A stretch of 64,000 nucleotides of DNA from Vicinamibacterales bacterium (GCA_050249615.1 JBFWQE010000013.1:406-64405), one strand, 5' to 3'; positions 8,697 through 51,690 are shown, counted from the stretch's first letter. Made by a program: numbers and translations. The notes: a model not told the origin generated them from the letters alone.

Positions 8697-8700
8697 GGCG

Positions 8701-32315: not shown

Positions 32316-32464
32316 AGCTGTGGCCCAGACAAGGGGCCGAATCGATGTTCCTACTCTATGGAGTAGACCACTGATCCACGCATCCCGGCGCATGGCACGC
32401 CCGCTTTCGCGTGCTGCACTTTCGGGTGTGGATGGCGGTGGTCACGGATGGGAGTATAGCACGG

Positions 32465-32578
32465 GGTCCTGGGGTTCTCGGGTTCTCGGGTTCTCGGGTT
32501 CTCGGGTTCTCGGGTTCTCGGGTTCTCGAGTTCTCGGGTTCTCGGGTTCTCGGGTTCGGGGGTTCGGGGGGTTGGGGC
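32465..32578. repeat. tandem octamer array (GGTTCTCG)x~13, decaying into GGTTCGGGG units
   Basis: ggtcctggggttctcgggttctcgggttctcgggttctcgggttctcgggttctcgagttctcgggttctcgggttctcgggttcgggggttcggggggttggggc sits in the divergent asd / 32634 gap. Confidence 0.9.
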
Positions 32579-32633: not shown

Positions 32634-33320
32634 ATGCAGACGACACTGATCAACCCGGCGGAGCTGTTCCGCCTCGTCTATTTCTTCGACATCCTGGCGG
32701 CCGTCGTCTTCGCGGTATCTGGCGCGCTCGTCGCGTCTCGCAAGGGGATGGACGTGATGGGCTTCATGTGGCTCTCGGTCATCACGGGCGTCGGAGGCGG
32801 GACGGTGCGCGATCTGATCCTGGACGTGCCCGTGTTCTGGGTGCAGAACCCCGTCCACGTGTCGGCCTGCCTGATGACGGCGGTGGTGATGCACTTCGTC
32901 GCGCCGCTGGTCGAGTCCCGCTATCGAACGCTCCTGTGGTTCGACGCCTTCGGCCTCGCCCTGGTCACCGTTGCCGGGACGGTCAAGGCCATGGATGTCG
33001 GCGCGCCGGCGCTGGTGGCCATCGCGATGGGCGCGGTCACCGGGACGGTCGGCGGCATGATCCGGGACACGCTCGGGCACGTGCCGTCGGTGCTCCTCCG
33101 CCACGAGATCTACGTGACGGCGTCGGTGCTCGGCGCCTGCACGTACGTCGGGCTCGACCAGGCGGGCGTAGAGCGCCTGCCGGCGATGATCGGCGCGTTC
33201 CTCACGACCTTCACCGTTCGGGGTTTGGCGATCAGGTACGGGTGGTCGTTGCCCGTGTTCCGCGCATCGGAGACGCGGGAGCGCTGGAGAAACGACCGGA
33301 AGGACTCGGGGCAGGGATGA
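32634..33320 (+). CDS. TRIC-type cation channel / UPF0126 (YadS/YicG-like) membrane protein
   Basis: Duplicated UPF0126 pattern: FDILAAVVFAVSGALVASRKGMDVMGFMWLSVITGVGGGTVRDLIL, and a second copy FDAFGLALVTVAGTVKA...GAVTGTVGGMIRDTL. Confidence 0.8.
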   Translation: MQTTLINPAELFRLVYFFDILAAVVFAVSGALVASRKGMDVMGFMWLSVITGVGGGTVRDLILDVPVFWVQNPVHVSACLMTAVVMHFVAPLVESRYRTLLWFDAFGLALVTVAGTVKAMDVGAPALVAIAMGAVTGTVGGMIRDTLGHVPSVLLRHEIYVTASVLGACTYVGLDQAGVERLPAMIGAFLTTFTVRGLAIRYGWSLPVFRASETRERWRNDRKDSGQG

Positions 33321-35594: not shown

Positions 35595-35914
35595 GTGGCA
35601 TGCGGCGCAAGACGAAGGTATTCAGGCGCACGGAGACGTTCAATGGCCGTTCGGCGATTTCGTCGCATCAGCGGCTTCCGCCGCTCGCTCGATTCGGCGT
35701 CGGACGGCTGGTCTTCCACAATGGCTTTGACCGTCTCCCCGCAGAGGCTCGCGAGATGCAGCGTCTCCACTACTCGTCGGCGCGTCACTGGAGCAGCCCG
35801 CGCGGCCTCGTTCGCCGCAAGTCACTGAAACCCTGCGGCTTCGAGTTCAAGGGGCGATGGCACGCGACGTGTGCGATAATTGTTGGTCGACCGCTCGCAA
35901 GTTGCTGATCCTGA

Positions 35915-35955
35915 ACGGAGAGATGTCCGAGTGGTTGAAGGAGCACGCTTGGAAA
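35915..35955 (+). repeat. attL: 41-bp direct repeat = orphan 5' half of tRNA-Ser(GGA)
   Basis: ACGGAGAGATGTCCGAGTGGTTGAAGGAGCACGCTTGGAAA is identical to 50907-50947. Identity ends at the last base of the anticodon loop. Confidence 0.85.
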
Positions 35956-36235
35956 TCCACCTGGCCGTGCGCGATGGCGTGCTCTCGATTGCGATAAGCG
36001 TTACAGATTCAGGCGCTTAGCGCGAATCGCCTCACGAGCGTCGATCCCCATAAACCACTGTATTTCTCTCGAAATTGATCGGGTCACGTCACGGTTGCGT
36101 CACGATCGGGCGCTGTGACGTCGGGCACGTTCGCGGCATCGTGAACATGGCGCGGGCGTGGACATCGACCGCCAACCTATGCGCCCGGCCTGGGCGAAGG
36201 AGACGGAGTTCGAAGGCACTTGGCGTCGGACCTCC

Positions 36236-37066
36236 TCACCTCTCCCCGGCCACGCTGGCCAGTGCGGCCTTCAGCACGTGAACGCAGAGCGTGGCGGTGT
36301 GGTGGTCGGGTGTGAAGCCTGACACCATCTGCTCGTACGGGTGAATGTAGTTGCGGAACTCTCGAAGGCCGTGGCCGAACTTCTTGACGTCCGGCTTGAG
36401 GATGCCGATTTCGCAGGCCACATCGATGAACTGCGCGAGCGTCCACTCGTGGAACTTCCTGACGCTGGCGTCCTGGTTTCTTGGGCTGGCGGATGCTTTG
36501 TTGAAGCGCGCCGGTTCCTTCTGGGCGGCACCGAGAAGGACCGCTTCGAGCACGCTCCCGCACAGGAAGATCACTGACAGGTGGGCCCCGGCGGCCAGTG
36601 CCTTGTCGGCTTCCGCCAAGCGGCTTTCAATGATGGGCACGACCTGCTGCTCGATGGGGAGTTTCTGAACGTTTGGAGCGGCGAAATGACGGCTCAGGAA
36701 CTCCGCGGCAGACTGCTCCGGAGGCGGTGGTGCCGCTCTTCCTTGAAGGCGCGCGACGATGGCGCGCGTCTTGGTCAGAGCGGCGGAATCGATCTCGCGC
36801 TTGTTGAGATCGCAATCCGCCTCGTAGGCGTCGAGCAGTTCGGACAAGACCGAACCGACGACGGCGTCCGGCTCGACCTCCCAGAAGGCGCGAAGCTTCT
36901 TGGCCTTGGATGTACCGTACTTCTGATATGGGCCGTGGTGGATGTCGCGCTTGTGGCGCTTGAAGAACGTGTCGAAGGTCGCGTCCGTGAAGTCGAGGAC
37001 GTAGCCGCCACCCATGCCAAGCACCTTCTCGACGTAGCGCTTCTCAATATCGGTGAGACTGCTCAT
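36236..37066 (-). CDS. hypothetical protein with HEPN-like C-terminal domain (AbiJ-like architecture?)
   Basis: The start MSSLTDIEKRYVEKVLGMGGGYVLDF is at ATG 37066. The helical C-terminus has HLSVIFLCGSVLEAVLLGAA and GHGLREFRNYIHPYEQ (an R-x6-H / RNxxH-type motif). It lies 105 nt downstream of gajB on the same strand. Confidence 0.5.
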   Translation of the reverse strand: MSSLTDIEKRYVEKVLGMGGGYVLDFTDATFDTFFKRHKRDIHHGPYQKYGTSKAKKLRAFWEVEPDAVVGSVLSELLDAYEADCDLNKREIDSAALTKTRAIVARLQGRAAPPPPEQSAAEFLSRHFAAPNVQKLPIEQQVVPIIESRLAEADKALAAGAHLSVIFLCGSVLEAVLLGAAQKEPARFNKASASPRNQDASVRKFHEWTLAQFIDVACEIGILKPDVKKFGHGLREFRNYIHPYEQMVSGFTPDHHTATLCVHVLKAALASVAGER

Positions 37067-37171
37067 GAGCGGGTTCCGGGCGTGTCGTTGGGAGGGTGAG
37101 CGGTCTTCCGCGCTACCGCCAGATCCTTGTGAAACGCCTTGGACGGCGGATTGACGACCAACGGCGGCCAA

Positions 37172-39088
37172 CTACGCACTGGCCTCAACGAGCCCCATCT
37201 CCACTAGGAACCGCGACGGCGCCTTCTTCCAACCTCGATAGCTCTTGGCTCGGCTGAGCACGAGGCATTCTTTCGTACGGGTGATGGCGACGAAGCAGTT
37301 GCGACGCTCTTCCTCCATCTCCGGGCTCCCGTCGCCCTTCTGGCGACTCTGGAAGGAGGGCATGATGTCTTCCGCCAGTCCGATCACGTACACGCGCTCA
37401 AACTCCCGCCCCTTCGCCCCGTGTATGGTCATAAGCGTAACAGAGTGCGGTCTCGGCGCTGGCTCCTTTGAGCGCAGCTGCAACTCCTGCAGGAACTGTT
37501 CGAGCGGTGCGCCCGTTCCAATGTGGCTCGCGATGTCTCGGCTAAGGCCGCGCCACGCAGCCATGTCTTCAGCCACATCCGATTCGTCCGACGCGGCGTT
37601 CTGTCGGTCCGACAACTCCTGAAGTATGCCGCTCATGTCAATCTGGATCGTCGACGCAGTGCTTGTCGTTTGCACGTACTGAAGCAGTGCATCCGATGGC
37701 GACGACGCGCCACTCAGACGCGCAGACTCCAACCACGTTGCAAGGTAGCTGAATCCCGTTGATTCGGCATCCGCGACCACCTGCGCGCCGTCGACGGATG
37801 TCCCCGCCATTCGATTGAACGAATCGACGAGCACCGACAGGTTCCGCCTGTCCAATGGTCTGACCGTCTGCCGCAAGACGGCAACAAGCCACCTGAACTC
37901 CGGCGACAGAAAATCGTCGCGACGTTGCGCGACTCCTGCGGCTACACCTGCGTCATGCAATGCTCTGTTCATCCGGTCTAGGAGGGCCTTCGTTCGCGCA
38001 AGGACCGTCGTCTGGTCCCAGGAGCCTCGGCCGGTGCTCGCGATCTCCGTGGCAATTCCGACGGCCTCGTCATCCTCCGTCTCGAACACGCGCAGCTGAA
38101 TCTGCTCAGAGTCCGGGTACAGGCCGCTCGTCTTTCCCGCGACTAGTGGCCCCTTGGTTGCCGTACGTTGAACGTTATAGACAACGAGCCGATTGGCCGC
38201 CTCTACGATCGCTGCGGGGCACCGATAGTTCGTCGGCAGCTGGATGACCTGAGCACCGAAGTCGGCGATAAATGCTTGAATCTGCTGGTAGCTGGCTCCA
38301 TTCCATCCGTAGATGATTTGGTCATCATCTGCAACAGCGAACACGTTCTGAAAGGAGTTGGCGGCAAGACTACGGAGGAGAGAGTACTGGGCACGATTCG
38401 TGTCCTGGAACTCATCTATCAGCCAGTACGGATACGACCGCCGATAGCGCGTCGCGATTGCCGGAAACGCCACCAGAAGACGATGGGCCTGAAGGATGAG
38501 GGAGTTGAAGTCCAATGCGTTCAGCCGGCGCAACTCCTCTTCGTAGACCCGGTACGTGACTGCAATCCGCTTGGCTTCGGGTGCCCTCCCCAGCGCGCTC
38601 TCTGCTTCCTCCGGCTCAATGAGGCTCGCCTTGAGTCGGTCGATGACTGGCAGGTGCCTGACGTCGTCCGGGTCACTCTGTCCTTCGGCCCTTGCCAAGG
38701 CATCCTCCAGGACAGCTTTTCGATCTGCATCTGTCGAGTAGATTGCAAAGTCGGACTGAATCCCGATATGGACGCCGTGCTGTCGCAGTACCTGACCGCA
38801 GAAACCGTGAAATGTCGCGATGTTGGCGCGCTCTTCCAGGCCCGGCACGAACGTAGCGACGCGGCTCTTCATCTCGTCGGCCGCCTTGTTCGTGAACGTG
38901 AGAGCGAGAATCCGGAACTGCTGATCACGCGAACGGTCGAGCAGGTCGGCAATGCGACACGTCAAGACCTGCGTCTTGCCCGAACCGGGGCCCGCAAGCA
39001 CGAGCAGTGGTCCCTGGTCCCACTGTACCGCTTGACGCTGAATGTCGGTGAGTTGCGCAAGAGCGGCGTTGAACGGCGACTCGGTCAT
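37172..39088 (-). CDS. gajB: UvrD/PcrA/Rep-family helicase, Gabija GajB
   Basis: Walker A LAGPGSGKTQVL, motif II LIDEFQDTNRAQY, a VLARTK-type motif and C-terminal TIHGAKGREFERVYV. The start overlaps the gajA stop (ATGA at 39085-39088). Confidence 0.8.
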   Translation of the reverse strand: MTESPFNAALAQLTDIQRQAVQWDQGPLLVLAGPGSGKTQVLTCRIADLLDRSRDQQFRILALTFTNKAADEMKSRVATFVPGLEERANIATFHGFCGQVLRQHGVHIGIQSDFAIYSTDADRKAVLEDALARAEGQSDPDDVRHLPVIDRLKASLIEPEEAESALGRAPEAKRIAVTYRVYEEELRRLNALDFNSLILQAHRLLVAFPAIATRYRRSYPYWLIDEFQDTNRAQYSLLRSLAANSFQNVFAVADDDQIIYGWNGASYQQIQAFIADFGAQVIQLPTNYRCPAAIVEAANRLVVYNVQRTATKGPLVAGKTSGLYPDSEQIQLRVFETEDDEAVGIATEIASTGRGSWDQTTVLARTKALLDRMNRALHDAGVAAGVAQRRDDFLSPEFRWLVAVLRQTVRPLDRRNLSVLVDSFNRMAGTSVDGAQVVADAESTGFSYLATWLESARLSGASSPSDALLQYVQTTSTASTIQIDMSGILQELSDRQNAASDESDVAEDMAAWRGLSRDIASHIGTGAPLEQFLQELQLRSKEPAPRPHSVTLMTIHGAKGREFERVYVIGLAEDIMPSFQSRQKGDGSPEMEEERRNCFVAITRTKECLVLSRAKSYRGWKKAPSRFLVEMGLVEASA

Positions 39089-40998
39089 GCCAGCCCTCTC
39101 AGTTCTCCGATCGCGTCGCGAAACTGCTGAAGAGTGCGTGTCGCCAGCGCGGGGTCAGTGGCCAGGCGCTCGGCGAGTTTGGCAGCGACATCGATCTTGC
39201 ACTTCTCGAGTCGTGTCTGGAGAATCGGCAGACCGATCGTGCCGGCGTCGGCGTGCCCGAGTTCCTGCAGGATGGCGCGAAGCTCAGGTTCCAGGCCGTC
39301 CGCCAAGAGTTGCTGCTCCAGATGGCCCCCAGCCAGAGTACGGCACCGCTGAGCCACAAACCCAGGGTCAAACTGACGATCGGTGATCTTCTGGACGTAC
39401 CCATGGCCAGCGTTGTCGCCATCGAAGACGGCCAGCCACGGGATTGACAGCGCTCGGGCCAGAGCCGCGAACGTGGATGGATGGCCGTTGTTCATGGCAT
39501 CGATAACAGCCACGCCATGTTCATCCAAGTCGTATCCGATCGCCTTGGCAAGCGCGTGAACGATCAGGTACTCCGCTTGTCCTTCCACGAGCATCCAGCG
39601 TCGAGCGAAGAAGATCTCACCTCGGATGCGTCGTGCGAAGGTCTCGAGTGACGCCAGTTCGTCGTCCGACATGAACAGCATTGAGCGGTCCTTCAGCTCT
39701 CTCAGGACCCCGTGGATCACTGCCCTGTCAGGGTGCTGTCCATAGACGGTCAGAGTGTCGCGGTATAGAGCCTCGGGAAAGGCGCCGTTGACCGTAAGCG
39801 TCTCCGTCAGTCGGTCGTAGACGAGGAGGCCACCCGACCCCGCCACGACGCCATCGAGGGACGGAACGTGCGGAACGGTGGCTGAGAAGTTCGGGGGCAG
39901 CCAGCTAATCTCGGTGCCGCGCTCAGTCAAACGGACGAGGCGAAGGTCACGAAAGGGGACGTGCGGGACGAAATACGGCGAGTGCGTCGTGATGATCTTC
40001 TGCCCGGGGAGCGCATTCACGTGCGCCCACAATGTCCGGGCAGCCTGTGGATGCAAGTGCGTCTCAGGCTCCTCCAGAGCGAGGGCTGGAACGCTGTCGG
40101 GCTGATACAGCTCGGCCAGCAGGTGCTGGACGAACGCTTGAAAGAGAAAAATGACGGAAAGACTCTGGAGGCCTTGGCCGTGACGCTGCAATGGCAACCA
40201 TGGCCAGTCCGGTTCGTTGCGCAGAATGATCTCTGCCTTCGAGAGCAGATCCCATGCCTTGAGTGGAACAAGGCGGAGGTTGACTCCACCGTCACGGTCG
40301 CGCGCGGCCACCTTCGTGGCTCCGGACAGGGTCGTCGCGACTTGCGCCAGCCTTGGGTCCGCGTCTAGCAGCCTGGTGTTGAGTCGATCAAGTATCTTCT
40401 GGACCCGAGCTTCCAGCGTTGCGGGGATCTTCATCGCCTTTAGAAGACGGCCCCAGAACTGTGATCGCGAGGAGAACTCGTCCTCGGCGTCTCGAAGGGC
40501 ACCGAGGTAGAAGACGGGCAAGTACTCCCAGAAGCGTTCGAGGTTCAGCCGCCGCGTGGCCCCACCGAAGAGCGGAGCTCGAGCCGCGTTCAGGAAGGCC
40601 CAGTCCGCCACGAACTGCTCTTCGCCGGCATTCCACCCCCAGCCCGCCCGCAACGTGATCGAGTTCTGTCCGGTCGCTGGATCGGTCTGGACAATCTGAT
40701 CCAGAGCCTGTTGGACGGCATCTGGCCATTCGCCCGCCGCGCCCTCCTCGGTTCGGAGTTCGATAGCAACTGGAGTCGAGGTTTTCGGGTCGTCAGTCTG
40801 GGTGGCGAGGTGAATGTCGTATTCGGTGAAGCCCGTTCCGCGCTGTCCCCAGCGTCGCGTGAGCACAATTCGGACGGCATCGAGAATTGCCGTTTTCCCC
40901 GCGTTGTTTGGCCCGATGAAGACCGTCGTTTCGCCGAGCTGAACATCGAGCGCCTTTATGGAGCGAAAGTTCTCAATGCGCAGGGATGTGATTCTCAT
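39085..40998 (-). CDS. gajA: OLD-family ATPase-Toprim nuclease, Gabija GajA
   Basis: MRITSLRIENFRSIKALDVQLGETTVFIGPNNAGKTAILDA (ABC/AAA_15 N-terminus), LALEEPETHLHP (Walker B/D-loop) and C-terminal Toprim MLVEGQAEY ... VFDGDNAG. A class-2 OLD nuclease next to UvrD is the Gabija arrangement. Confidence 0.8.
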   Translation of the reverse strand: MRITSLRIENFRSIKALDVQLGETTVFIGPNNAGKTAILDAVRIVLTRRWGQRGTGFTEYDIHLATQTDDPKTSTPVAIELRTEEGAAGEWPDAVQQALDQIVQTDPATGQNSITLRAGWGWNAGEEQFVADWAFLNAARAPLFGGATRRLNLERFWEYLPVFYLGALRDAEDEFSSRSQFWGRLLKAMKIPATLEARVQKILDRLNTRLLDADPRLAQVATTLSGATKVAARDRDGGVNLRLVPLKAWDLLSKAEIILRNEPDWPWLPLQRHGQGLQSLSVIFLFQAFVQHLLAELYQPDSVPALALEEPETHLHPQAARTLWAHVNALPGQKIITTHSPYFVPHVPFRDLRLVRLTERGTEISWLPPNFSATVPHVPSLDGVVAGSGGLLVYDRLTETLTVNGAFPEALYRDTLTVYGQHPDRAVIHGVLRELKDRSMLFMSDDELASLETFARRIRGEIFFARRWMLVEGQAEYLIVHALAKAIGYDLDEHGVAVIDAMNNGHPSTFAALARALSIPWLAVFDGDNAGHGYVQKITDRQFDPGFVAQRCRTLAGGHLEQQLLADGLEPELRAILQELGHADAGTIGLPILQTRLEKCKIDVAAKLAERLATDPALATRTLQQFRDAIGELRGLA

Positions 40999-41489
40999 GA
41001 TGTGCTGTCCAACGGCCCTACGCTAGTGAAACAACAGCACGGGCGAGTGCGAGTGGCGTCGACCTCGAACGTCAGCCATGGACTTTTGCCCTCGCCGAGT
41101 TGCCCTGACAATCCGGCGGCGATCTCGGGTGCCAGCGCGTCACGGACGACAGCCGTGCACTTCGCTTCGGCTCGTTCCATCCACTTGCCCGCCTGGCCCT
41201 TGCTCAAGGCAGCCATCGCGTCGGGTTCGTCGAGGCCGAGGAACGCCGGCGCCAGCGAGAGGTCGATGTCCTCCGGAAACCGATTGATGACGTCGAGGGC
41301 TTTCGAGAGCGACGTACCGCCCTTGAAGGCGATGGCATCTCGAAAGGACGACTGGAACAAGATGCTGAGGAGCCAGCACACCCAGAAGCCCTTCTCGACG
41401 ATTACGGGAGCCAGTCCTCGACGGGCTGCGGCTTCGTCGATGTAGACGTTGCGCTCGGCAGCCGGCAGCTCGAGGAACGCCAGCGTCAT
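40995..41489 (-). CDS. AbiEii/AbiGii-family nucleotidyltransferase toxin, C-terminally truncated (probable remnant)
   Basis: EKGFWVCWLLSILF...FKGGTSLSKALDVINRFPEDIDLS are the NTase motifs I/II. It is only 164 aa against ~250-300 expected. The tail TRTRPCCCFTSVGPLDSTS looks like read-through into the gajA leader. ATGA overlaps occur at both ends. Confidence 0.6.
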   Translation of the reverse strand: MTLAFLELPAAERNVYIDEAAARRGLAPVIVEKGFWVCWLLSILFQSSFRDAIAFKGGTSLSKALDVINRFPEDIDLSLAPAFLGLDEPDAMAALSKGQAGKWMERAEAKCTAVVRDALAPEIAAGLSGQLGEGKSPWLTFEVDATRTRPCCCFTSVGPLDSTS

Positions 41490-42094
41490 GACGCCAGATC
41501 CTTCAGCGGACGGTGCATCCATTCTGGCGCCAGCGTCAGGTCCTTGAGCAGCGAGCGCCGATCGTCGGCTGGCAGCGTGCGCCGGAGTCTGGCGATTCGT
41601 TCCGGCGTGATGCACTCCGGGCCGAGGTGACGGAACGCCTGAATAACGAGCCCAGACGGACGTCCGGCAGCCGCCATATTGCGCGGCGTGGTGCGTCGAA
41701 GCTGCAGCGTGATTGGGCCGACCCGGACCACTCGGCTCGGGCCATCGGTGAGGAAAACCACCTTCGCGGGCACATGCTCCGAAAGGCCCAGCAGATTCGC
41801 GGCATAGGCTCCGGACGGCTGAAGTCTGACGCGATCACGCCCGGCCATCGCCTTCGCGAGGGCCTCTGGCGTCGGAGAGAGCTGGCCCAAGCTCGGGTGC
41901 AGCTTCGGAAAGTCGTACAGGCCTCGGCCGAGCTGACGGATCGTCCCTGCCTCCGTCTGGCGCCGTAACGCCGAGGTAATGGCCGGACGGCTGGCCAGGT
42001 CCAGGAAGTGGCGCGGGGTGAACACCCACCCCCTCCCGTGCCCCCTGATGCGGTCAAGTATCGACTTTTCAGCCGATTGTGGGCGCTTCGCCAT
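41486..42094 (-). CDS. AbiEi-family (type IV TA) antitoxin / transcriptional regulator
   Basis: The start MAKRPQSAEKSILDRIRGHGRGWVFTPRHFLDLASRPAITSALRRQTEAGTIRQLGRGLYDFPK is the AbiEi_4/DUF6088-type N-terminal wHTH. The stop overlaps the abiEii start. Confidence 0.8.
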   Translation of the reverse strand: MAKRPQSAEKSILDRIRGHGRGWVFTPRHFLDLASRPAITSALRRQTEAGTIRQLGRGLYDFPKLHPSLGQLSPTPEALAKAMAGRDRVRLQPSGAYAANLLGLSEHVPAKVVFLTDGPSRVVRVGPITLQLRRTTPRNMAAAGRPSGLVIQAFRHLGPECITPERIARLRRTLPADDRRSLLKDLTLAPEWMHRPLKDLAS

Positions 42095-42174
42095 GAAGAT
42101 TCGAAGCAAAAGATGCCATAAATTTGCTGCACAAGGAAGCTCGATGGACCGCCGCAAGGTCAGCGGGGCCCGTT

Positions 42175-42213
42175 CCGCGGTTATCCGCGGTTATATAACC
42201 GCGGTGCGGTTAT
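42175..42213. promoter_or_regulatory. candidate AbiEi operator: CCGCGGTTAT half-sites (direct, direct, inverted, direct)
   Basis: ccgcggttat ccgcggttat ataaccgcgg tgcggttat includes the perfect 20-bp palindrome CCGCGGTTATATAACCGCGG (42185-42204), ~90 nt upstream of abiEi. Confidence 0.5.
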
Positions 42214-42224
42214 TTTCGCCCGCC

Positions 42225-43931
42225 TCACGAAGGGCCGGACCGTTCGTACCACGCCCCCTTCTTGCTGCCGCGCTGGACCAGACGGCCATCCTCGGTCAGG
42301 CGCGTGAGGAGCCGGTACGCCTGGTCTGCCGACAGCCTACAGAGCTCCGCCACCTCGGCTCTGGTGATCCGTCCGTGTCGTTCGACGTACTGCAGCACCA
42401 TCTGTTCCTGCTGCAGCGGTTCGAATCCCCGCTGGCGCACGTACGCGGCCTTGTCGCCAAGGGCTCGATACGTCGCAGCCGAAAGGTGCCAGGTGCGTCC
42501 CTTCTTCTGGCCACGCTCTTCGACGAAGCCAGCCTCCACCAGGCGGTGTAGCACGGCGCGCGCGTCACCGTCCGGCTTCTGAATGAGCCGGCCGACATCG
42601 GGTGTAGTCAGGCTGCGCTCCTGCCACAACGCATTCAGCACGAGCAGCTCGTCGAGGCTCAGGTCGCGCTCGTGCTGCGCCTCGGTGACGAGCAGCCTCA
42701 CGAAGTCCAGATTCGCCTCGCCACCTGGAATGACCACCACCACGCCGGTCGCGTCGCTGCGTGCGTAGGATGGCGCTGGCCGGCCGTTTCGCAACTGCTC
42801 GAAAAAGATCGTGTCGATCCCGCGCGCGGTCCGTTCGACGATGCCGGCCCGTTTGAACGCGTCAGCAAGAAGCGGATTGCGCGGGCGAGGGGCCGTGACC
42901 AGCAAGTTGTCAAGGCGAACGCCTTCCGGAAAACCGCCGGGGCTGCTGATCTCGATACGGTCCAAGTGCCACTGAAAGTGCACCGCACCGAGGCGCTGAT
43001 AGTCACGGTGGATCAGCGCGTTGGCCAGCGCCTCACGCAGGGCCCGCTCCGGGTAGTCCGGCACGCCCACGCGCAGCAGGCCCACCATCAGCTCCTCTTC
43101 GCGATTGCGCGCACGAATCCGCGCTTCGATCTCTTCCATCACCCGGAGCAGGGGCCAGCGGAAGAAATCGTTGACCTCGACATCGAGGCCACGCAGCACC
43201 TGGAACGCGACCTCATTGCCGGGTACGAATCGACGAAGAGCATCGTCCTTCCCGAAGAGGAGCACGGCAGCCAGGCGCAATGCTCGTGGGCTCCCGTTGG
43301 CATCAACCACGCCGAGGGCCTTCGCCAATTCCAAGTCAGGCAGGTTGAGAAGGGATTCGTCGCTGCGTCCCCGACGTTCGCGGACACTTCGTCGGAAGCG
43401 CTCGAACTCAAGCGGGTCCAAATCCTCCCACCGCGCGCCGCCCACCACCTGCCCTGAAGGGTCTAGCTGACCCCGGTCCGCCTGCTGCGACTGGATGGCA
43501 AGAGCGTCCATTGGAGCGCACGCCGGGCGTCCGTCACCGCCCAACGTACGGCGCAGGAACTGTCCGTCACTCGTGCAGACGACGTGCTGTTGTGGCGGCA
43601 CCTCGACCACCAGAACGGACATACCGTCCAGCAAGTGCTCTTCGACTTGCACGGCCAGCGCCGGCCGCGTTCGACCCGCGACGAGGGCGGCGACTCTGTC
43701 GAGATCCGTCGTCGCGTCGTGCCGGGGACGAGCGCCGGTGACTGTGCCGTCGTCCTCCACACCCACGAGCAGCCAACCTGGTGCGACGGCGGTCCGATTG
43801 GCAAGACAGACGACGGCCTCGACGAGCTCGCGGTCGTTGAGGATCGATCGCTTCTCTCCCTTGAACTCGACATCCAGTGTTTCGCCGCCAGCGATGATGC
43901 GGCGCAGTTGCTTCACGGTCATGGGTATCAC
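42225..43931 (-). CDS. AlbA_2 (Schlafen-like) + HATPase_c_4 + C-terminal wHTH protein (COG2865-type)
   Basis: N-terminal GGETLDVEFKGE...LVEAVVCLANRTA (AlbA_2), mid ALREALANALIHRDY (HATPase_c_4), and C-terminal wHTH repeats (LHRLVEAGFVEERGQKKGRTWHL; LLTRLTEDGRLVQRGSKKGAWY). Confidence 0.75.
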   Translation of the reverse strand: MIPMTVKQLRRIIAGGETLDVEFKGEKRSILNDRELVEAVVCLANRTAVAPGWLLVGVEDDGTVTGARPRHDATTDLDRVAALVAGRTRPALAVQVEEHLLDGMSVLVVEVPPQQHVVCTSDGQFLRRTLGGDGRPACAPMDALAIQSQQADRGQLDPSGQVVGGARWEDLDPLEFERFRRSVRERRGRSDESLLNLPDLELAKALGVVDANGSPRALRLAAVLLFGKDDALRRFVPGNEVAFQVLRGLDVEVNDFFRWPLLRVMEEIEARIRARNREEELMVGLLRVGVPDYPERALREALANALIHRDYQRLGAVHFQWHLDRIEISSPGGFPEGVRLDNLLVTAPRPRNPLLADAFKRAGIVERTARGIDTIFFEQLRNGRPAPSYARSDATGVVVVIPGGEANLDFVRLLVTEAQHERDLSLDELLVLNALWQERSLTTPDVGRLIQKPDGDARAVLHRLVEAGFVEERGQKKGRTWHLSAATYRALGDKAAYVRQRGFEPLQQEQMVLQYVERHGRITRAEVAELCRLSADQAYRLLTRLTEDGRLVQRGSKKGAWYERSGPS

Positions 43932-44085: not shown

Positions 44086-45024
44086 ATGTTCGACCGTTAC
44101 GACCCGCGCGACGACGACCGTCAGTACCGAGATCGAGGCCGCGATCTCGATCGCGGTGGCCGCGGCAGCGGCCAAACGTCCGACCGCCGCGAGCGGGACC
44201 CGCGCGACGTCTTCACGCGCGACCTCGACCTGCCACGCGGGCGCGAGCGGGAACGCACCCGAGACCGCGATCGCGTCTACGACATCGACGGCTCCGAAAG
44301 CCGGATGCTAGCGACGGTCGGCTCGTTTCGCGTGGTCGCCGAGCGCGACCTGGCGGCGCTGCGCGACGACGCCCGGAAGCCGCACCAGAGCATCCGTCAC
44401 CTGGAAGACGAGAGTCTGATTCGGCGGTCGCCACTCGATGCCAACGACCGCGCCGTCGTCCTCACCGAGCGCGGCCGGGACCTGCTCGAAGCCAATCGAT
44501 CGCTTCCGCGCGACGAGCGAACACACGAGCCCCGCCAGGAGTTCTACGCCGGCCTCAGGAAGCCGCGCGAGTTGACCCACGATGTGAAGGTCTACCGCGC
44601 CTACGAGCGCTCCGAGGAACGCATCCGTGACTGCGGCGGGCGCGTCCAGCGCGTCGTCCTCGACTACGAGATGAAGCGCGACTACCAGCGTTTCCTGCAC
44701 GAGCGGAATCGCGGCAGGAAGGATTGCGACGGCCGTCCCGATCGCGAGGCCGACGAGATCGTCCACTGGGCGAAGGAGCACGACCTGCCCTACGAGGAGG
44801 ACGGGCACGTGCACTTCCCGGACGCTCGCATCGAGTACGAGGACCGTGATGGCCGTTCACGCTTCGAGGACCTCGAGATCGTGACGCCGCACTATCGCGG
44901 TGCCCACGCCGCCGGCGCGGCGAAGTCCGGCTTCACCTGCTACGTCTCGATGGGGTCCGGCGTTGGCGGACGTGGCGGCGGCAGGGGCGGACGAAGCCCG
45001 CGGATCATGGAGGAGTTCCTGTGA
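44086..45024 (+). CDS. hypothetical wHTH protein with RD/RE-rich N-terminus and RGG C-terminus (replication-relaxation-like?)
   Basis: N-terminus DPRDDDRQYRDRGRDLDRGGRGSGQTSDRRERDPRD...RGRERERTRDRDR, core LATVGSFRVVAERDLAAL...LIRRSPLDANDRAVVLTERGRDLL, and C-terminus GVGGRGGGRGGRS. Confidence 0.45.
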   Translation: MFDRYDPRDDDRQYRDRGRDLDRGGRGSGQTSDRRERDPRDVFTRDLDLPRGRERERTRDRDRVYDIDGSESRMLATVGSFRVVAERDLAALRDDARKPHQSIRHLEDESLIRRSPLDANDRAVVLTERGRDLLEANRSLPRDERTHEPRQEFYAGLRKPRELTHDVKVYRAYERSEERIRDCGGRVQRVVLDYEMKRDYQRFLHERNRGRKDCDGRPDREADEIVHWAKEHDLPYEEDGHVHFPDARIEYEDRDGRSRFEDLEIVTPHYRGAHAAGAAKSGFTCYVSMGSGVGGRGGGRGGRSPRIMEEFL

Positions 45025-46085
45025 GTACGCTGCCGTTGGAGCCGACGCCGCTTCCACCGGAGCCCCAGTTCTGGTTCATCAAGGAGACGAGCGCAGAACG
45101 GCTGCACGCGATATCGGCGTTCGGGTTCACGGACCGGCAGTCGCGCTTTCTCCTGGAGGTCCTCCTGCATTCAGGCGTCTTCCTCGAACGCCAGTACTGC
45201 CAGTTCGCCGGCATCGTCCACGGCCAGAAGAGCACCGACTTCATCAGGAGCCTCGTTGACCGCCAGTTCGCCACGCCCATCGCGCCAGGCAAGCTGCATC
45301 GCGGGCGGATGTTCCACCTGCACTACAAGCCGTTCTGGACCGCCATTCGCGAGCCCGACAGCCGGTTCCGCAAGCGGGCGGCGCTCGGCCGCCTGATCGA
45401 GCGCGTGATGCTGCTCGACGCCGTCCTGGACGATCGCTCGATGGTCTGGCTTGGGCCGTCCACCGACAAGCGTCGGCACTTCACCAGCCACCTGGGTGAC
45501 CGCTTCGATCTCGCTGATCTACCCCGCCTGCAATTCGGCCACGGCCCGCGCCCGACATATCGCCACTTCCCGGACAAGCTCCCGATCGGCGACGACCCGG
45601 AGCGCACCGACCACCACGTCTTCGTCTATCTCGTGACGACGCCGGTGCCGTGGGACTTCAGGCTGTTCCTGCTGCGGCACGTGCCGCTGCTGTGGAAGCT
45701 CAGTCGGTGGACCATCCGGCTGCTGTTTCCGAAGCCCCTGATGAAAGCCGAACGAGTCTACCTGCACGCCGCCCGCGAGCATCTGATGGGAACGACGGGC
45801 GGGCGCAACGTGAGCATGATCGAGCGGATGTTCAAGGAGCGCCTGCGGCAGACCCACCCCAATCCCGGGCCTTCGTACACCGGGTACCAAGAGGACGGGC
45901 GAGTGTTCTCCGGGCCGCGCTTCCAGGCCCTCTATCGCCAGTGGTTGGTCGACCCCGAACGCACCCTCTGGATGGCCGATTCCCATGTCCTCGCGGACGC
46001 GATCGAGCGCGGGTTGGGCCGTGTCGAGTGCGTCGAGCTGACGCGCCAGTATCTGCATCTCTCACCCCTGGTCGACATCGCCTGA
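45021..46085 (+). CDS. hypothetical protein (second wHTH-like, replication-relaxation-like?)
   Basis: GTG at 45021 overlaps the upstream TGA (GTGA). FTDRQSRFLLEVLLHSGVFLERQYCQFAGI resembles the Replic_Relax-type wHTH opening. 354 aa with no other recognisable motif. Confidence 0.45.
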   Translation: MSTLPLEPTPLPPEPQFWFIKETSAERLHAISAFGFTDRQSRFLLEVLLHSGVFLERQYCQFAGIVHGQKSTDFIRSLVDRQFATPIAPGKLHRGRMFHLHYKPFWTAIREPDSRFRKRAALGRLIERVMLLDAVLDDRSMVWLGPSTDKRRHFTSHLGDRFDLADLPRLQFGHGPRPTYRHFPDKLPIGDDPERTDHHVFVYLVTTPVPWDFRLFLLRHVPLLWKLSRWTIRLLFPKPLMKAERVYLHAAREHLMGTTGGRNVSMIERMFKERLRQTHPNPGPSYTGYQEDGRVFSGPRFQALYRQWLVDPERTLWMADSHVLADAIERGLGRVECVELTRQYLHLSPLVDIA

Positions 46086-46128
46086 GCGGCCTCAAGGACC
46101 GAGCGGGCACCGAGTCAGCGAGTGCGTT

Positions 46129-47160
46129 TCAGCCCCGCATTGCCTGACCGTCCGGTCGCGGATATGCCTTCTCCGCCATCGCGAAGATCGGTGCCAAGGG
46201 CCAGACTGAGCCCTCGGCCTTGAACTCGAACGAGGCTCGCTCCTCCTTCAGTTCCGCCAACCGACCGTAGAGCTCACCCGAGTCGCGGATGGGCAAGAAC
46301 ACGAGGACCGGGCCCATCTGAACGCCCCAGCAAACAGGCAGTTCGGGTCTGGAAATACGAAAGACGCGTCGCTCCGAGAAGGGCAGCGGCATCGGCAACC
46401 GGAACGAGAATGCGTCGATCCATTCGTGGGTTGGCTCTTGAATCTGCCGTCGGACTGGCCCCAGAAACGGATGCATGGCGTACCGGTAACCCAAGAGCGC
46501 GAAGACGGCCAAATACGCCGACTTCAACCAGCTGACCTTCGCTCGTCTGTCGTTGGGATCTGTCAGTTGAAACGACAGCCGAAAAGGGGCAGCCAAGGCC
46601 GGTGCCCGCGTGACGCCGTCGAAGTACTCCGCGACACGACTCAGAGTCGCCGGAGCCCCGCCCAGCATGGTGATGCGATTCTCTCCCGCCGCGCTCGTCT
46701 CAAACTTGGCTGGCAGTTCGTGGTCTCCGACGTGCAGCCGGCCGTGCACCGGCTCCTGACCGGCAAGGGCTCTGATGCTGCGCTCGACGCGATGAGCCAT
46801 GGCATCGATGCCGTGTCCGGCAGTGCTGTTACATGGCTTGCAGGTGAGCACCAACGGACGCCCGTCTGAGTGCCTGGGAGGGACGTCCTCGATGGTCAGG
46901 AGGGTTCCCAACATCGCCGCGGTGAACAGCTTCATCCGCGCTCGGCCGTCAGCCTCGGTGACGGCGCACAGGGGGCACGCGTAGGCTGGCGGAATCGGAT
47001 CGCCGGTGGCTGTTGTCAGTTGTCCAAACGTGAGCCCGAGGTCGCGTACGCCCGCCTCGAACCAGACTTGCCGCCGCTTGTCTCTCGAAGCTCTCCCCAC
47101 TGACCGATGATAGTCTGCAACAGCGTCACACGGACCCTTCGTTCGGTAAGGCCGGGACAA
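46129..47160 (-). CDS. HNH_5-like zinc-ribbon protein with His-to-Asp change at the catalytic position
   Basis: CPLCAVTE...LTIEDVPPRHSDGRPLVLTCKPCNSTAGHGID parallels the CxxC...EH(V/I)xP...CxxCN layout of HNH_5 endonucleases, but reads ED instead of EH. 343 aa. Confidence 0.5.
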   Translation of the reverse strand: MSRPYRTKGPCDAVADYHRSVGRASRDKRRQVWFEAGVRDLGLTFGQLTTATGDPIPPAYACPLCAVTEADGRARMKLFTAAMLGTLLTIEDVPPRHSDGRPLVLTCKPCNSTAGHGIDAMAHRVERSIRALAGQEPVHGRLHVGDHELPAKFETSAAGENRITMLGGAPATLSRVAEYFDGVTRAPALAAPFRLSFQLTDPNDRRAKVSWLKSAYLAVFALLGYRYAMHPFLGPVRRQIQEPTHEWIDAFSFRLPMPLPFSERRVFRISRPELPVCWGVQMGPVLVFLPIRDSGELYGRLAELKEERASFEFKAEGSVWPLAPIFAMAEKAYPRPDGQAMRG

Positions 47161-47289
47161 CCCCGGGGGACAACCTCGATTTCGGAGGTCGTCCCCCTGA
47201 GCGCTTGCTCAACGACCTGGCCGCGTGCGCAGCCGGCGTTGGCAGCCACCCGCCCTGGAGCGCGACAATCGCCTGTTCGCGCGCCACTT

Positions 47290-47459
47290 CGCGGCACAGC
47301 AGCCAGCCGCCGCTCTCGACGGGCGGCGCTCTGTGCCGCCCCTGTAGGCGCAAGAGTAGACGCCAACACAGGACACCATGGCGTGAGCGACCCCGGTTGG
47401 CGCGCTCGATTCCGTCCCGCGCGTGTCCGGAAGGGTCGCTCACGCCATGGCTGTCAGTG
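47290..47459. other. structured non-coding segment: two long hairpins in a 637-bp gene-free gap
   Basis: GCGGCACAG...CTGTGCCGC (47290-47339, with inner CCGCC/GGCGG). A perfect 18-bp inverted repeat CCATGGCGTGAGCGACCC / GGGTCGCTCACGCCATGG (47376-47393 / 47442-47459) encloses a 48-nt loop. Confidence 0.6.
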
Positions 47460-47797: not shown

Positions 47798-48673
47798 CTA
47801 CTTGCGCAGTTCGCGTTGGCAGACCGTATCGATGCGCTCGGCAAGGAAGGCGGCCAGCTTCCGGCTCTCGTCGAAGGCTGACGCGCGCAACAGTTCGATC
47901 ATGTCTTCGTACGTCGCGACAGCCAGCCGATCGCCGTACTCCGGCAGGAGAACCTGTTCCCTGAACGCACTCACCTGTGCGCGCAGAACAGCACCCACAC
48001 GGTCCGGCACAATCGCCAGCGTAGCCCACGCTGCGCGTCCCGACGATGCAGCGAACAGGACGTTGCGCATCAACTGGAAGTTCGGCCCCCGGAACGGACA
48101 CACCTGGCCGCTGGCCTGTGTTGCGAACACACGCTCCCGAAACAGGGACCGCCCCTTGCGCCAGTACGAACGGGCTCCCCGAGCGCCGTCGGCCACTTCG
48201 AGGCGACAGTTCGACGCTGTGCCGGTCTTCAGGTCCGAGCCGGGGCCGTAATGGCCGCCACAGTGTTTTGGAAATTGACTGCAGGGGCCGAATCCTTCGC
48301 GCGCATCCATGATGAACTTGGACTCGATGCACACGGCGCTGGATTCCGAACGGCAGAACACGTCCAGCGAAGTCGCCGTCACTCGACCCGACTCGTCCAG
48401 AATGCGACGATCGGAATGCTCCAGCAACAGTTCCCACGGGCCGGTGAGGCCGCGTTTCGGGAAGTGGCGGGTCAGAAGGGCCTGCAGAATCACCTGGCCG
48501 TCGGCCGCGTGGCGCAAGGAGCCAAACGCGGACACGCAGAACACCTGTGACGACTGCTCGCTCAGCGGAGAGTGCCACCGAATGCTCAGGCCTTCTGACT
48601 CCGTCAACGCGCCAGCCAGGTATGTGGCGTTCGTCTGGACTTGGTGCCAGCGCTCAGCGGGATGGGTGCGCAT
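47798..48673 (-). CDS. PD-(D/E)xK nuclease-like protein
   Basis: The start MRTHPAERWHQV is at ATG 48673. TSLDVFCRSESSAVCIESKF fits D-x(n)-E-x-K. 291 aa, no methyltransferase partner nearby. Confidence 0.5.
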   Translation of the reverse strand: MRTHPAERWHQVQTNATYLAGALTESEGLSIRWHSPLSEQSSQVFCVSAFGSLRHAADGQVILQALLTRHFPKRGLTGPWELLLEHSDRRILDESGRVTATSLDVFCRSESSAVCIESKFIMDAREGFGPCSQFPKHCGGHYGPGSDLKTGTASNCRLEVADGARGARSYWRKGRSLFRERVFATQASGQVCPFRGPNFQLMRNVLFAASSGRAAWATLAIVPDRVGAVLRAQVSAFREQVLLPEYGDRLAVATYEDMIELLRASAFDESRKLAAFLAERIDTVCQRELRK

Positions 48674-49199
48674 TGCGCACGGTTGTAGCACATCAGTTGG
48701 GAGGAGCAGTGCTCCTCGTGTCGATCTTGCCCATTGACCTCGACCCGGAGCAGCGGTAGCCTGTCCTCTCGTCCGTGCCCCACTGCACACCTGCCGCGCG
48801 AGCGACACTCGGCGCGGGTTGCTGACGGCCGGCGCCTTCAGGGCTCCCGCCAGCAACACACTTCCTGACTAGCACGGCTTCGAACTCCAGCGCGCGTACC
48901 GAGTGCGGCGTCTCGGAGTTCCACCATCGCTCGCGGCGTGCCACAACGGCCTGCCGCGGCGGTGTTCGGGAGCCCGGTTGTCCCACTGACGATTCAAGAA
49001 GGCAGCACGTCAGCGCACCGAGGGCTTCGGAAAGCATCGGCCTCAGGCCGTGCATGAACGCGGCGCCCATCGCCCCGCGTTCTCGGTGTTCGGCGTTACG
49101 CCGGCATCTCGCGCAACTGCCTGCGGCGCGTTGACCCAGGTCACCGCGTCCGAGCGCGCCATTCGTGGACGTTCGGCAACAAGCATTGCGAGGTGCACC

Positions 49200-49424: not shown

Positions 49425-49672
49425 ACGCGCAGGTCATTCACCACGGCACCCGCGCGCTCACCGAGCGCGAGGTCTCCGACCTGCTCGGCCTGTCGGTGGC
49501 TACGCTGCGCGCGTGGCGGCATCGAGGCCAGGGGCCGCGGTTCCTACGCCTCGGACGGGCCGTACGCTACCTCCCGGCAGACCTTGAGAAGTTCGTCCGT
49601 GCCAGCACCGTTGACGCCAGTGCGGAACCGTCGCCTGATCGGCAGACCGGCATCGAGGAGTTGCGGTCATGA
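49421..49672 (+). CDS. AlpA/HTH_17-like DNA-binding protein
   Basis: ATGA overlaps occur with both neighbours. LTEREVSDLLGLSVATLRAWRHRGQGPRFLRLGRAVRYLPADLEKFV. Confidence 0.7.
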   Translation: MNAQVIHHGTRALTEREVSDLLGLSVATLRAWRHRGQGPRFLRLGRAVRYLPADLEKFVRASTVDASAEPSPDRQTGIEELRS

Positions 49673-51690
49673 GCCTCTGGAAGCGCGGACGCCAGTACTG
49701 GGCAGACTTCACGGTGGACGGTCGGCGCTACCGCAAGCGCCTCGGCACGACGAACCTCCAGGTCGCGAAGCAGAAGGAACGGCAGCTCATCGAGGATGCC
49801 GGCCTCGGAGGCGTGGCCACGCACGCGCAGGGGCCGAAGCGCCTCTTCGAGGCCGTGGACGCCTACATCGAGGGGAAGCGCCTGCACTGCTCGCCGCGCA
49901 CCATCGAGTTCGAGGAGGAGCGCCTGATTACTCTGAAGCGCTGCTTCGGTGACGTGCCGCTAACCGCGATCACGGCCAAGGCGATTGCCGACTACCAGCG
50001 CCAGCGCCACGAGGCCGGCAAGGCCAACCGCACCATCAACATGGACGTCGGCGTGCTGTCGCGCGTGCTCAAGTCGTGCGGCCGGTGGCGCGCGCTGGCC
50101 GACCATGTGCGCAACCTGCCCGAGCGTCAGCGACCGGTCGGGCGGGCGCTGACGCCCGAGGAGCGCAAACGGCTCTTCGACGCAGCGGCGTCGAATCCGG
50201 AGTGGGAGCACGTCTACTGCGCGGCTGTCGCTGCTGCCAACACGTCGATGCGCCCGGTGGAGGTCAAGCACCTCCGCCGGCGCGACGTCGATCTCGAGAA
50301 GAAGCTCCTGTACGTCCGCCGGAGCAAGAACGAGACGAGCCACCGCGTCATCCCGCTCAACGCGTCGGCGCTGCAGGCCATCACCAGGATGGTCGAACGC
50401 GCCGATCTGCTCGGCCACACCGAGCCCAATCACTACCTCTGGCCTGCCTGCCAGTGGGGCCGCTACGACCCGACGCAGCCGATGCTGAAGTGGGACACAG
50501 CTTGGCGGGCCCTGCGTGACGCCGCTGGGCTGCCGCGGTTCCGGTTCCACGACCTCCGGCACACGGTGATCACCGAACTCGCGGAACTCGGCGTGGCTGA
50601 TCACGTGCTGGAGTCGATCAGCGGACACCTATCGAGGCGCATGTTGGAGCACTACTCGCACATCCGCATCGACGCCAAACGGCAGGCCCTCGACGCACTG
50701 GACGAATCACGGCGAGACGGCCACAATGGCGACGGCACGAGTGGAGACGCGCACGCGGACAGGAGCGGCGACAGCACTGAAAGACCCAAGAACGGCGAGG
50801 AAGTCCCGCTGCTCGTGGCACTCGCCGAGGGGCTTACGTCACAGTTACGTCACAGTTTGCGTTTGGCGGGATCGCCGCCCTCCGCTAAACTATTGATTCC
50901 ACTTGCACGGAGAGATGTCCGAGTGGTTGAAGGAGCACGCTTGGAAAGCGTGTGTAGGGGAAACTCTACCGTGGGTTCGAATCCCACTCTCTCCGCCATC
51001 CTTCGCGCCACCAAGCCCATTCGCGGCACGCCGCCGCGGGATCTCATGCGAATCTCATGGCTCGCTCACGATTCGGTGAGGACTTCGCGGCCGGCCTTCC
51101 GTCACAGTGGCGCATATGACACCCACTGTGACGCCCTCCGTGAAGGCTCTCGCCCTCATCGCCCTCGGACTGGCCATTGCCGGGATGGGCCTTTACGTCG
51201 CCAACGCCGACGACGCGCCCGGCGCGGCGGTCATCGGATTCGTGCTGATGCTGGCCGCGGTCCTGTTCGCCGTCAGAACGGCACGGAACCGGCTGCCCAC
51301 CTGGGCTGGGCGCACTGCCCTGGCGGTCGGCGTTCTCACTGCGGCGTTCGCGGCATTCCTCACCCATGTGGTCACCGCGGCAGCGCCGCTCTTCCCGCAA
51401 GCGCGCGACGTGCCATCGGTCGGCGATTCGGCACCGTCGCCGCAATATGCGGGGGCCGTCGAGCGCGCGCGGGAGTTCGTGCGTGCAGCCGTCCTCCAGC
51501 AGAACCTGCCAGGGGTGTCGGTGGCGGTCGGTGCCGGCGGCACGGTCGCCTGGTCGGAAGGGTTCGGCTGGCGGGACATCGACACGCGGACGCCGGTGAC
51601 ACCGGATACCCGATTCAACATCGGCACGGCGGCGTCCGCGGTCACAGCCGCCGCCGTGTCGCCGCTCCGGCTGACCAACACCGGCGTTGA
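49669..51690 (+). CDS. tyrosine recombinase / phage-type integrase (catalytic core ~49669-50720; the ORF has no stop until 51690)
   Basis: N-terminal SAM-like domain with AIADYQRQR. Catalytic residues RPVEV (Arg), HDLRHTVITELAE (HxxR), GHLSRRMLEHYSH (His...Tyr). The ORF then reads through attR and the tRNA-Ser gene and overlaps the next gene out of frame. Confidence 0.85.
   Translation: MSLWKRGRQYWADFTVDGRRYRKRLGTTNLQVAKQKERQLIEDAGLGGVATHAQGPKRLFEAVDAYIEGKRLHCSPRTIEFEEERLITLKRCFGDVPLTAITAKAIADYQRQRHEAGKANRTINMDVGVLSRVLKSCGRWRALADHVRNLPERQRPVGRALTPEERKRLFDAAASNPEWEHVYCAAVAAANTSMRPVEVKHLRRRDVDLEKKLLYVRRSKNETSHRVIPLNASALQAITRMVERADLLGHTEPNHYLWPACQWGRYDPTQPMLKWDTAWRALRDAAGLPRFRFHDLRHTVITELAELGVADHVLESISGHLSRRMLEHYSHIRIDAKRQALDALDESRRDGHNGDGTSGDAHADRSGDSTERPKNGEEVPLLVALAEGLTSQLRHSLRLAGSPPSAKLLIPLARRDVRVVEGARLESVCRGNSTVGSNPTLSAILRATKPIRGTPPRDLMRISWLAHDSVRTSRPAFRHSGAYDTHCDALREGSRPHRPRTGHCRDGPLRRQRRRRARRGGHRIRADAGRGPVRRQNGTEPAAHLGWAHCPGGRRSHCGVRGIPHPCGHRGSAALPASARRAIGRRFGTVAAICGGRRARAGVRACSRPPAEPARGVGGGRCRRHGRLVGRVRLAGHRHADAGDTGYPIQHRHGGVRGHSRRRVAAPADQHRR
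50907..50947 (+). repeat. attR: 41-bp direct repeat (5' half of the intact tRNA-Ser)
   Basis: Identical to 35915-35955. Two direct TTACGTCACAG arm-type repeats lie at 50834-50855. Confidence 0.85.
50909..50998 (+). tRNA. tRNA-Ser (GGA)
   Basis: GGAGAGATGTCCGAGTGGTTGAAGGAGCACGCTTGGAAAGCGTGTGTAGGGGAAACTCTACCGTGGGTTCGAATCCCACTCTCTCCGCCA has anticodon loop TTGGAAA, a long variable arm, a GGTTCGAATCC T-arm and an encoded CCA. Confidence 0.9.

Follow-up and report, generated by a model that had tools for sequence, protein, structure and literature searches.

How do genes of two different defence systems come to be chained, stop codon over start codon, into a single apparent transcription unit? The question is raised by a block of five genes in a contig of a metagenome-assembled genome (MAG) from a Vicinamibacterales bacterium, of which a stretch of 64,000 nucleotides (the window) was analysed. 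Here, genes of the AbiE system and of the Gabija system follow one another on the minus strand, with a shortened AbiEii-like toxin gene at the boundary. A reading of the sequence alone had proposed that a Gabija cassette landed inside abiEii. Comparison with related loci supports another origin: in an integrative island, a deletion between AbiE and Gabija genes that were already neighbours, together with a frameshift, probably accounts for the arrangement. The block comprises the following genes.

41486-42094, minus strand: abiEi, 202 aa from a conserved ATG (MAK...), intact
40995-41489, minus strand: abiEii-like open reading frame (ORF), the remnant, 164 codons
39085-40998, minus strand: gajA, 637 aa, intact
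37172-39088, minus strand: gajB, 638 aa, intact
36236-37066, minus strand: ORF5, the fifth gene, 276 aa

The three ATGA overlaps first noticed in this chain are all found on direct reading: gcgtcATGAcgctg at 41489-41486 (abiEi/abiEii), acatcATGAgaatc at 40998-40995 (abiEii remnant/gajA) and ggcATGAccgag at 39088-39085 (gajA/gajB). The abiEi/abiEii and gajA/gajB overlaps are native to their respective systems and recur in relatives; the remnant/gajA overlap is owed solely to deletion and frameshift. The fifth gene does follow on the same strand, 105 nt beyond the gajB stop, and folding of this spacer reveals no structure beyond that of shuffled sequences (z = 0.93).

Identities were assigned by Pfam, PADLOC and NCBIfam profile searches, and those first proposed for the four chained genes are borne out by Pfam and PADLOC. 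AbiEi matches Pfam DUF6088 (2.9e-39, residues 12-177) and PADLOC AbiEi (3.4e-63, covering 6-200 of 202); NCBIfam yields no specific family for it or for the AbiEii remnant. The OLD/UvrD pair passes the Gabija profile models at full length. GajA matches PADLOC PDLC00062 (3.6e-246, residues 1-636 on profile positions 1-637 of 639) and Pfam AAA_15, DUF2813 and OLD-like_TOPRIM, the combination of an OLD-family ATPase and a TOPRIM nuclease (class 2 OLD type), with a visible Walker A motif (GPNNAGKT) and the TOPRIM acidic motifs VEGQAE and DGD. GajB matches PADLOC PDLC00114 (3.2e-241, residues 8-635 on profile positions 3-633 of 635), Pfam UvrD-helicase (3.7e-71) and UvrD_C, as a UvrD/PcrA-type superfamily 1 helicase with visible GPGSGKT and DEFQD motifs; its best Protein Data Bank (PDB) matches are PcrA and UvrD. 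By sequence, the nearest solved structure to GajA is PDB 6p74, annotated as a putative ATP-dependent endonuclease of the OLD family (2e-20), and the B. cereus GajA chains in the PDB match at E ~9e-4 over residues 1-64 only. The pair fits the Gabija architecture and the PADLOC models, and a Gabija function is predicted from this family membership.

The abiEii-like ORF matches only the front of its family models: positions 2-76 of 238 in Pfam AbiEii (9e-13) and 5-119 of 309 in PADLOC AbiEii (1.9e-33). Relatives were aligned and 80 metagenomic AbiEi/AbiEii loci recovered, in which 59 of 71 complete AbiEii ORFs encode 322-360 aa. The window nucleotidyltransferase (NTase), which aligns only to residues 1-154 of its relatives, is truncated, as had been suspected, by ~180 aa rather than the ~100 aa first estimated. 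There is next to no chance that the 164-aa product represents a natural short AbiEii family: many database relatives do measure 130-180 aa, but they are fragments cut off at contig ends, or copies, frameshifted or truncated, in which homology goes on in a different frame, and the complete ORFs cluster at full length, as does the AbiEii of the metagenomic locus L103, the direct comparator for the window. The truncated ORF resolves into three segments.

41055-41489, minus strand: native in-frame abiEii codons 1-145, NTase motifs I and II present
41024-41054, minus strand: abiEii-derived out-of-frame stretch, native codons 146-155 plus 2 nt, with a 1-nt deletion upstream
40999-41023, minus strand: 25-nt gajA leader to the right of the junction, starting GCGTAG

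Alignment to full-length AbiEii places the breakpoint at codon 155/156, all abiEii homology ending between 41024 and 41023. The odd C-terminal tail had been put down to read-through into the gajA leader, which holds for its last nine residues (SVGPLDSTS) but not for its first ten (TRTRPCCCFT). The latter are abiEii codons 146-155 out of frame, and the native peptide HSHSPVLLFH is readable by tblastn in a second frame at 41055-41026. The frameshift is a 1-nt deletion (GACGC-CAC, ~41056) relative to L103 and two further AbiE loci, L001 and L002, and takes the form of a CCC-to-CC homopolymer change. Without it, the ORF would stop at a TAG created by the junction, 24 nt upstream of gajA. The GCGTAG that opens the leader is the end of an upstream-gene remnant found in relatives, one of which, L110, likewise ends in ...LVA*.

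These lesions bear directly on toxin function. By the motif definition of PMC3985639, motifs I and II are visible as GG-x15-DID, in line with the earlier description, and motifs III and IV are absent, belonging to the deleted part of the gene. Substituting single residues of motifs III and IV did away with the toxicity of S. agalactiae AbiEii (PMC3985639). The remnant is presumably non-toxic, and AbiE at this locus is almost certainly dead as a toxin-antitoxin (TA) or abortive infection (Abi) system.

The origin of the junction is best read from L103, which was found through an ORF5 homologue at 91% identity and carries, in order, GmrSD_N, AbiEi, AbiEii (343 aa), a 183-nt spacer, GajA, GajB and ORF5. 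Window positions 42140-41024 align to L103 2220-3337 at 86.6% nucleotide identity, and 41023-35929 to L103 4058-9146 at 84.9%. The window is the L103 arrangement minus 720 bp (L103 3338-4057), plus the 1-nt frameshift. The missing segment starts, on the abiEii side, with the third base of codon 156, takes in the rest of that gene including its stop and extends over 155 nt of the 183-nt spacer. In the window, the two sides of the deletion meet between 41024 and 41023; the junction sequences were read directly in both the window and L103, and microhomology was looked for there and not found.

A second relative, P0391 (JGI 3300056388), encodes the closest GajA in the databases (96% identical) and has the order abiEi-abiEii(342 aa)-hsdM-hsdS-hsdR-gajA-gajB, all co-directional and separated by gaps of 20-24 nt or overlapping. 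Three different defence systems seem to be packed there as one apparent operon behind an AbiEi promoter. L103 retains a 66-nt hsdM scar in its spacer. Because L103 and P0391 both hold a complete abiEii upstream of gajAB, and because tblastn finds no displaced abiEii C-terminus anywhere in the 64-kb window, the AbiE-Gabija adjacency appears to be ancestral and the fusion to have come by deletion. Two further loci are deletion variants: L108 retains an SLFN-type gene, the first ~100 nt of abiEi, hsdM, the last third of gajB and ORF5, and L001 retains abiEi, an abiEii cut at codon 156 and a 3' fragment of hsdR. L099 and L002 have the island ends, integrase and AbiE in common with the window lineage and carry different cargo. 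Taken together, these comparisons suggest that the window is one of several deletion derivatives of an island backbone.

Seen against these loci, the idea that a mobile Gabija cassette entered an intact abiEii, split the gene and so came under AbiEi control is barely credible. It would fit a truncated abiEii that abuts gajA and reads through into its leader, and Gabija of this clade does occur without AbiE. It does not fit the complete abiEii upstream of gajAB in both relatives, the colinearity of the window with L103 apart from 720 bp, or the lack of a 3' abiEii fragment; moreover, no terminal repeats, target duplication or transposase are seen around gajAB-ORF5.

The proposed history would involve: an island lineage in which the AbiE pair already lay beside, and in line with, a class-2-OLD/UvrD (Gabija-type) pair, with a type I restriction-modification (RM) system between the two in some relatives; a deletion of abiEii from codon 156 to the stop and of all but 25 nt of the sequence upstream of gajA; and a further 1-nt deletion, by which the dead ORF would end on the TGA inside gajA's ATGAGA. 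The same fusion was sought among 15 species-representative Gabija loci (GajA 66-81% identity), none of which has AbiE upstream, and among the 80 metagenomic AbiE loci, none of which has GajA or GajB nearby.

The remnant and its neighbours have since evolved differently. Across eight AbiE loci compared, the window-specific substitutions in the remnant are 10 nonsynonymous and 1 synonymous, as against 3 nonsynonymous and 7 synonymous in abiEi (Fisher p = 0.0075), and the changes unique to the remnant include D34G, V54A, V64A, F65L and S72P at near-invariant columns. Relative to L103, the ratio of nonsynonymous to synonymous substitution rates (dN/dS) is 0.23 in the remnant and 0.07-0.12 in the other four genes (abiEi 0.119, gajA 0.072, gajB 0.105, ORF5 0.08). 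The remnant evolves without constraint. AbiEi, at 86-91% identity to its relatives, is intact and under purifying selection, and so are gajA, gajB and ORF5. A similar state recurs in the nearest AbiE clade, where most sampled toxins are truncated or frameshifted and AbiEi is intact.

The positions of independent lesions in abiEii form an observation of their own. The window junction falls at codon 155/156 (CAC TAC), as do the L001 break (~5548), which joins a different sequence on its right, and a deletion of 1 nt in L101/L102; at codon ~221 (FWEKA), L101 and L002 break within a few nucleotides of each other and continue into unrelated sequence. Over the two sites, the lesions lie at ~2023 and ~2218 in L101 and at ~8660 in L002. 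Under a rough uniform model, the probability of such clustering at two sites is ~0.5% or less.

As regards regulation of the chain, two sets of repeats lie upstream of abiEi.

42101-42131, minus strand: candidate abiE operator/promoter inverted repeat, ending 6 nt before the abiEi ATG
42175-42204, minus strand: three AACCGCGG / CCGCGGTT repeats, upstream of abiEi in the gap to the SLFN-type gene

The inverted repeat near the abiEi start is conserved in all related AbiE loci, with the consensus TTGAAGCGAA-N12-TTnGCTTCAA, and homology among the island variants begins right at it (window 42140). In other AbiE systems, AbiEi is established to repress itself through inverted repeats at the promoter (PMC3985639, PMC7319586), and by analogy 42101-42131 is the best candidate for the AbiEi operator. 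The window copy is slightly degenerate (TGCAGCAAA / TTTGCTTCGA), with three lineage-specific changes in 46 nt. The AACCGCGG repeats, one of which makes the palindrome AACCGCGGTT, were rejected as the operator and are probably not it: they are partly conserved in L108 only and absent from the other AbiE loci, unlike the inverted repeat.

Before gajA, the deletion has left 25 nt, with only a weak Shine-Dalgarno-like GGA. With so short a leader and no recognisable promoter before gajA, one would most simply expect gajAB to be transcribed from the abiE promoter: the pair would now be read mainly as the downstream end of the abiEi transcript, started at the AbiEi-repressed inverted-repeat promoter, and ribosomes translating the remnant ORF would reach its end at the gajA start. 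It is plausible on this layout that Gabija is expressed from an AbiEi-controlled promoter. Since intact relatives already have 20-24-nt gaps along abiEi-abiEii-hsdMSR-gajAB, such co-transcription may pre-date the deletion. Scans for sigma-70 promoters and intrinsic terminators, run on the window block and on L103, were of no use even upstream of abiEi; no promoter-like site emerged in 35800-42400, although the promoter scan is weak for this phylum.

Several alternatives would change this account. One possibility would be that gajAB keep an independent promoter in the retained sequence, within the abiEii remnant or abiEi, so that the fusion has no regulatory consequence. Promoters inside upstream coding sequence are common in compact islands, and one member of the clade that stands alone behind a ~550-nt intergenic region would have its own promoter in that context. 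Judged from L103, the deletion took 155 of the 183 nt upstream of gajA, and the scan just described, weak as it is for this phylum, finds no promoter-like site; we regard this alternative as possible but doubtful. The fusion could also be adaptive, with AbiEi kept as the dedicated repressor of Gabija and the overlap-making frameshift selected for translational coupling. Consistent with this, abiEi is under purifying selection while abiEii decays, gajA is preceded by a very short leader with a weak Shine-Dalgarno, and intact AbiEi beside degraded AbiEii recurs in L001, L002, L003 and L101. Against it, the genes downstream of other orphan AbiEi copies are unrelated or on the other strand, so that AbiEi can be retained without need of Gabija. 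In addition, the fusion was found once only among the 15 Gabija and 80 AbiE loci, the operator repeat has itself diverged in the window lineage, and selection on abiEi could reflect anti-addiction immunity or the short time since the deletion. This adaptive account is unlikely. A broader version, in which AbiEi is kept after toxin loss as gatekeeper of a downstream defence operon, its promoter heads a multi-system array, and the abiEii breakpoints (codons 155/156 and ~221) mark a fragile or recombinogenic site driving cargo turnover, is speculative, and we would give it rather little weight.

An assembly artefact at the junction or the frameshift was also weighed. In its favour, the frameshift is a CCC-to-CC homopolymer change, and related contigs of long-read-style assemblies show many split genes (L100). 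Yet both flanks of the junction are about equally diverged from L103, gajA, gajB and other long window genes are unbroken, and an artefact would not be expected to bring the nonsynonymous excess of the remnant; this explanation is highly improbable. Some points do weigh against the deletion-and-frameshift history and its regulatory corollary. The junction and the 1-nt indel are known from the MAG assembly alone, L103 is a single short-read metagenome contig and P0391 was compared by gene order; given these limits of L103 and P0391, the deletion from the exact ancestor may have been one of 720 bp or of ~6 kb. The contrast in substitutions is drawn from small counts (11 remnant and 10 abiEi sites). 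The degeneracy of the window operator repeat means that AbiEi control may be weakened, and a promoter inside the abiEii remnant is possible, the scans being uninformative. On the whole, island decay with the fusion as a by-product is a better reading than a composite by design, and a regulatory consequence, plausible from the gene order, would be unique to this contig.

The surroundings of gajA differ among other loci. One GajA relative (85%) is the lone copy behind the ~550-nt intergenic region; in several others, gajA overlaps a different upstream gene by TAATG, that of a helicase and T5orf172 pair. Tight same-strand packing with any upstream gene is common in this Gabija clade. The pair in question, a DEAD-type helicase (~686 aa) and a T5orf172/MUG113 protein (408 aa), recurs in L011-L014 (~2700-6001) and L105-L107 (8831-12107), either directly upstream of gajA with the TAATG overlap or downstream of an ORF5 homologue, and looks like another shuffling two-gene defence module.

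The fifth gene had been called HEPN-like, and at the family level the description holds. The window protein itself has no match in Pfam, PADLOC or NCBIfam; 22 of 42 aligned diverse relatives match PF13643 DUF4145 (best E 7.5e-6), which is a divergent HEPN domain (PMC3710099, PMC13017515). Across the 42 sequences, R149, E174, R238, H242 and P243 are invariant, and the Rx4-6H motif is present as R235-x6-H242, within R235-DF-R238-NYI-H242. The architecture is an N-terminal helical domain followed by a C-terminal DUF4145/HEPN-like domain. A Foldseek search of the AlphaFold2 model (predicted local distance difference test, pLDDT, 94.8) against the PDB gave no significant match; the highest match probabilities fall to HEPN 1wol (0.82, TMt 0.62) and 1ufb (0.69), at E-values of 2-3. 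Searched against PDB sequences, a profile of the ORF5 family met only VPS35, at chance level. The family-level evidence suggests that ORF5 is a HEPN-like protein.

Its distribution points away from a role within Gabija. At E <= 1e-3 the family counts 2,758 cluster representatives; its members are of uniform length and reach >70% identity across matches annotated from several phyla. Of the 15 Gabija loci, 14 lack ORF5; in L013 the homologue (1901-2731) lies 3.3 kb upstream of gajA, and in L105-L107 it (8001-8834) stands between an MmeI-like gene and the helicase/T5orf172 pair. On this pattern, ORF5 would be an independent single-gene module of HEPN type rather than a Gabija component, and the family is a reasonable candidate for single-gene HEPN defence.

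The gene block is the distal part of a ~15-kb integrative defence island of a soil bacterium, as a tRNA-Ser repeat, an adjoining tyrosine recombinase and a drop in G+C content at third codon positions (GC3) indicate. The island and its other features are as follows.

35912-35955, strand not assigned: island end, a 44-nt direct repeat of the tRNA-Ser 5' part (att-like), 98% identical to 50904-50947
50909-50998, plus strand: tRNA-Ser(GGA), the other island end (ARAGORN)
~50146-50664, in an ORF from 49669, just upstream of the tRNA: tyrosine-recombinase domain (Pfam Phage_integrase 1.4e-23)
42225-43931, minus strand: protein of 568 aa with SLFN/AlbA_2, HATPase_c_4 and a C-terminal winged helix, directly upstream of abiEi
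47798-48859, minus strand: REase-ARP family gene (Pfam 1.8e-12), inside the island

Between the repeats GC3 runs at 0.71-0.83, as against 0.85-0.95 beyond them. The island repeat copies the 5' part of the tRNA and not its 3' end, and the integrase ORF (49669-50700) appears open through the tRNA. As L103 has GmrSD_N at the equivalent position, the SLFN-type gene looks like a swap within the island family. Four genes in 44086-47443, inside the island, have no Pfam match; genes at 44-46 kb are kept beside AbiE in L002 (73% nucleotide identity), and L101 matches 45750-45885 at 97%. An 18-nt inverted repeat, perfect and with arms 39 nt apart, also lies inside the island (47376-47393 / 47433-47450). 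Outside it, at 32464-32565, just upstream of a gene at 32634-33320, lies a tandem array of the octamer GGGTTCTC (12.8 copies, 93% matches).

The components of the locus are of known kinds, and their arrangement is an example of defence-island erosion, in which a toxin dies, its regulator survives and a neighbour is drawn into the transcription unit of that regulator. The arrangement has the appearance of ordinary gene decay rather than of a hybrid system by design, and it advises caution: within a defence island, close gene chaining and ATGA overlaps need not mean a designed composite. If AbiEi does control Gabija, or an array of AbiE, type I RM and Gabija, an antitoxin-type repressor would join the short list of known defence-island regulators.

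Set beside known systems, each part of the locus is recognisable and each departs from its model. The AbiE genes (Dy et al. 2014, PMC3985639; COG5340/DUF6088 and DUF1814 NTase) share with characterised AbiE the ATGA overlap, the promoter inverted repeat and motifs I and II; in the window, the toxin gene keeps 145 native codons of ~343, has lost motifs III and IV, carries a frameshift and evolves neutrally. The gajAB pair resembles Gabija in its full-length genes, its ATGA overlap and its end-to-end PADLOC GajA and GajB matches; it appears distant from the characterised Bacillus cereus VD045 system, its GajA being nearer PDB 6p74, and its gajA lies 25 nt behind a dead toxin gene, not behind an intergenic region of its own. 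ORF5 is best compared with DUF4145-type HEPN proteins (RAZR / PD-T7-4, PMC13017515; DUF4145 family, Anantharaman et al. 2013, PMC3710099), with which it shares the R...H motif, an all-helical C-terminal domain and occurrence as a single gene in defence islands. It differs from the RAZR-type proteins in an N-terminal domain that is helical, not a zinc ribbon; the window protein falls below Pfam significance and has no PADLOC model. The island as a whole recalls tRNA-targeting islands with TA modules, such as ICESa2603 with its AbiE (PMC11062541): here too an integrase adjoins a tRNA, the opposite border carries a direct repeat, GC3 is lowered, defence genes are stacked and AbiE is a recurrent element of the backbone. 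In contrast to ICESa2603-type islands, no conjugation genes are seen, and the AbiE toxin has been lost in most sampled variants.

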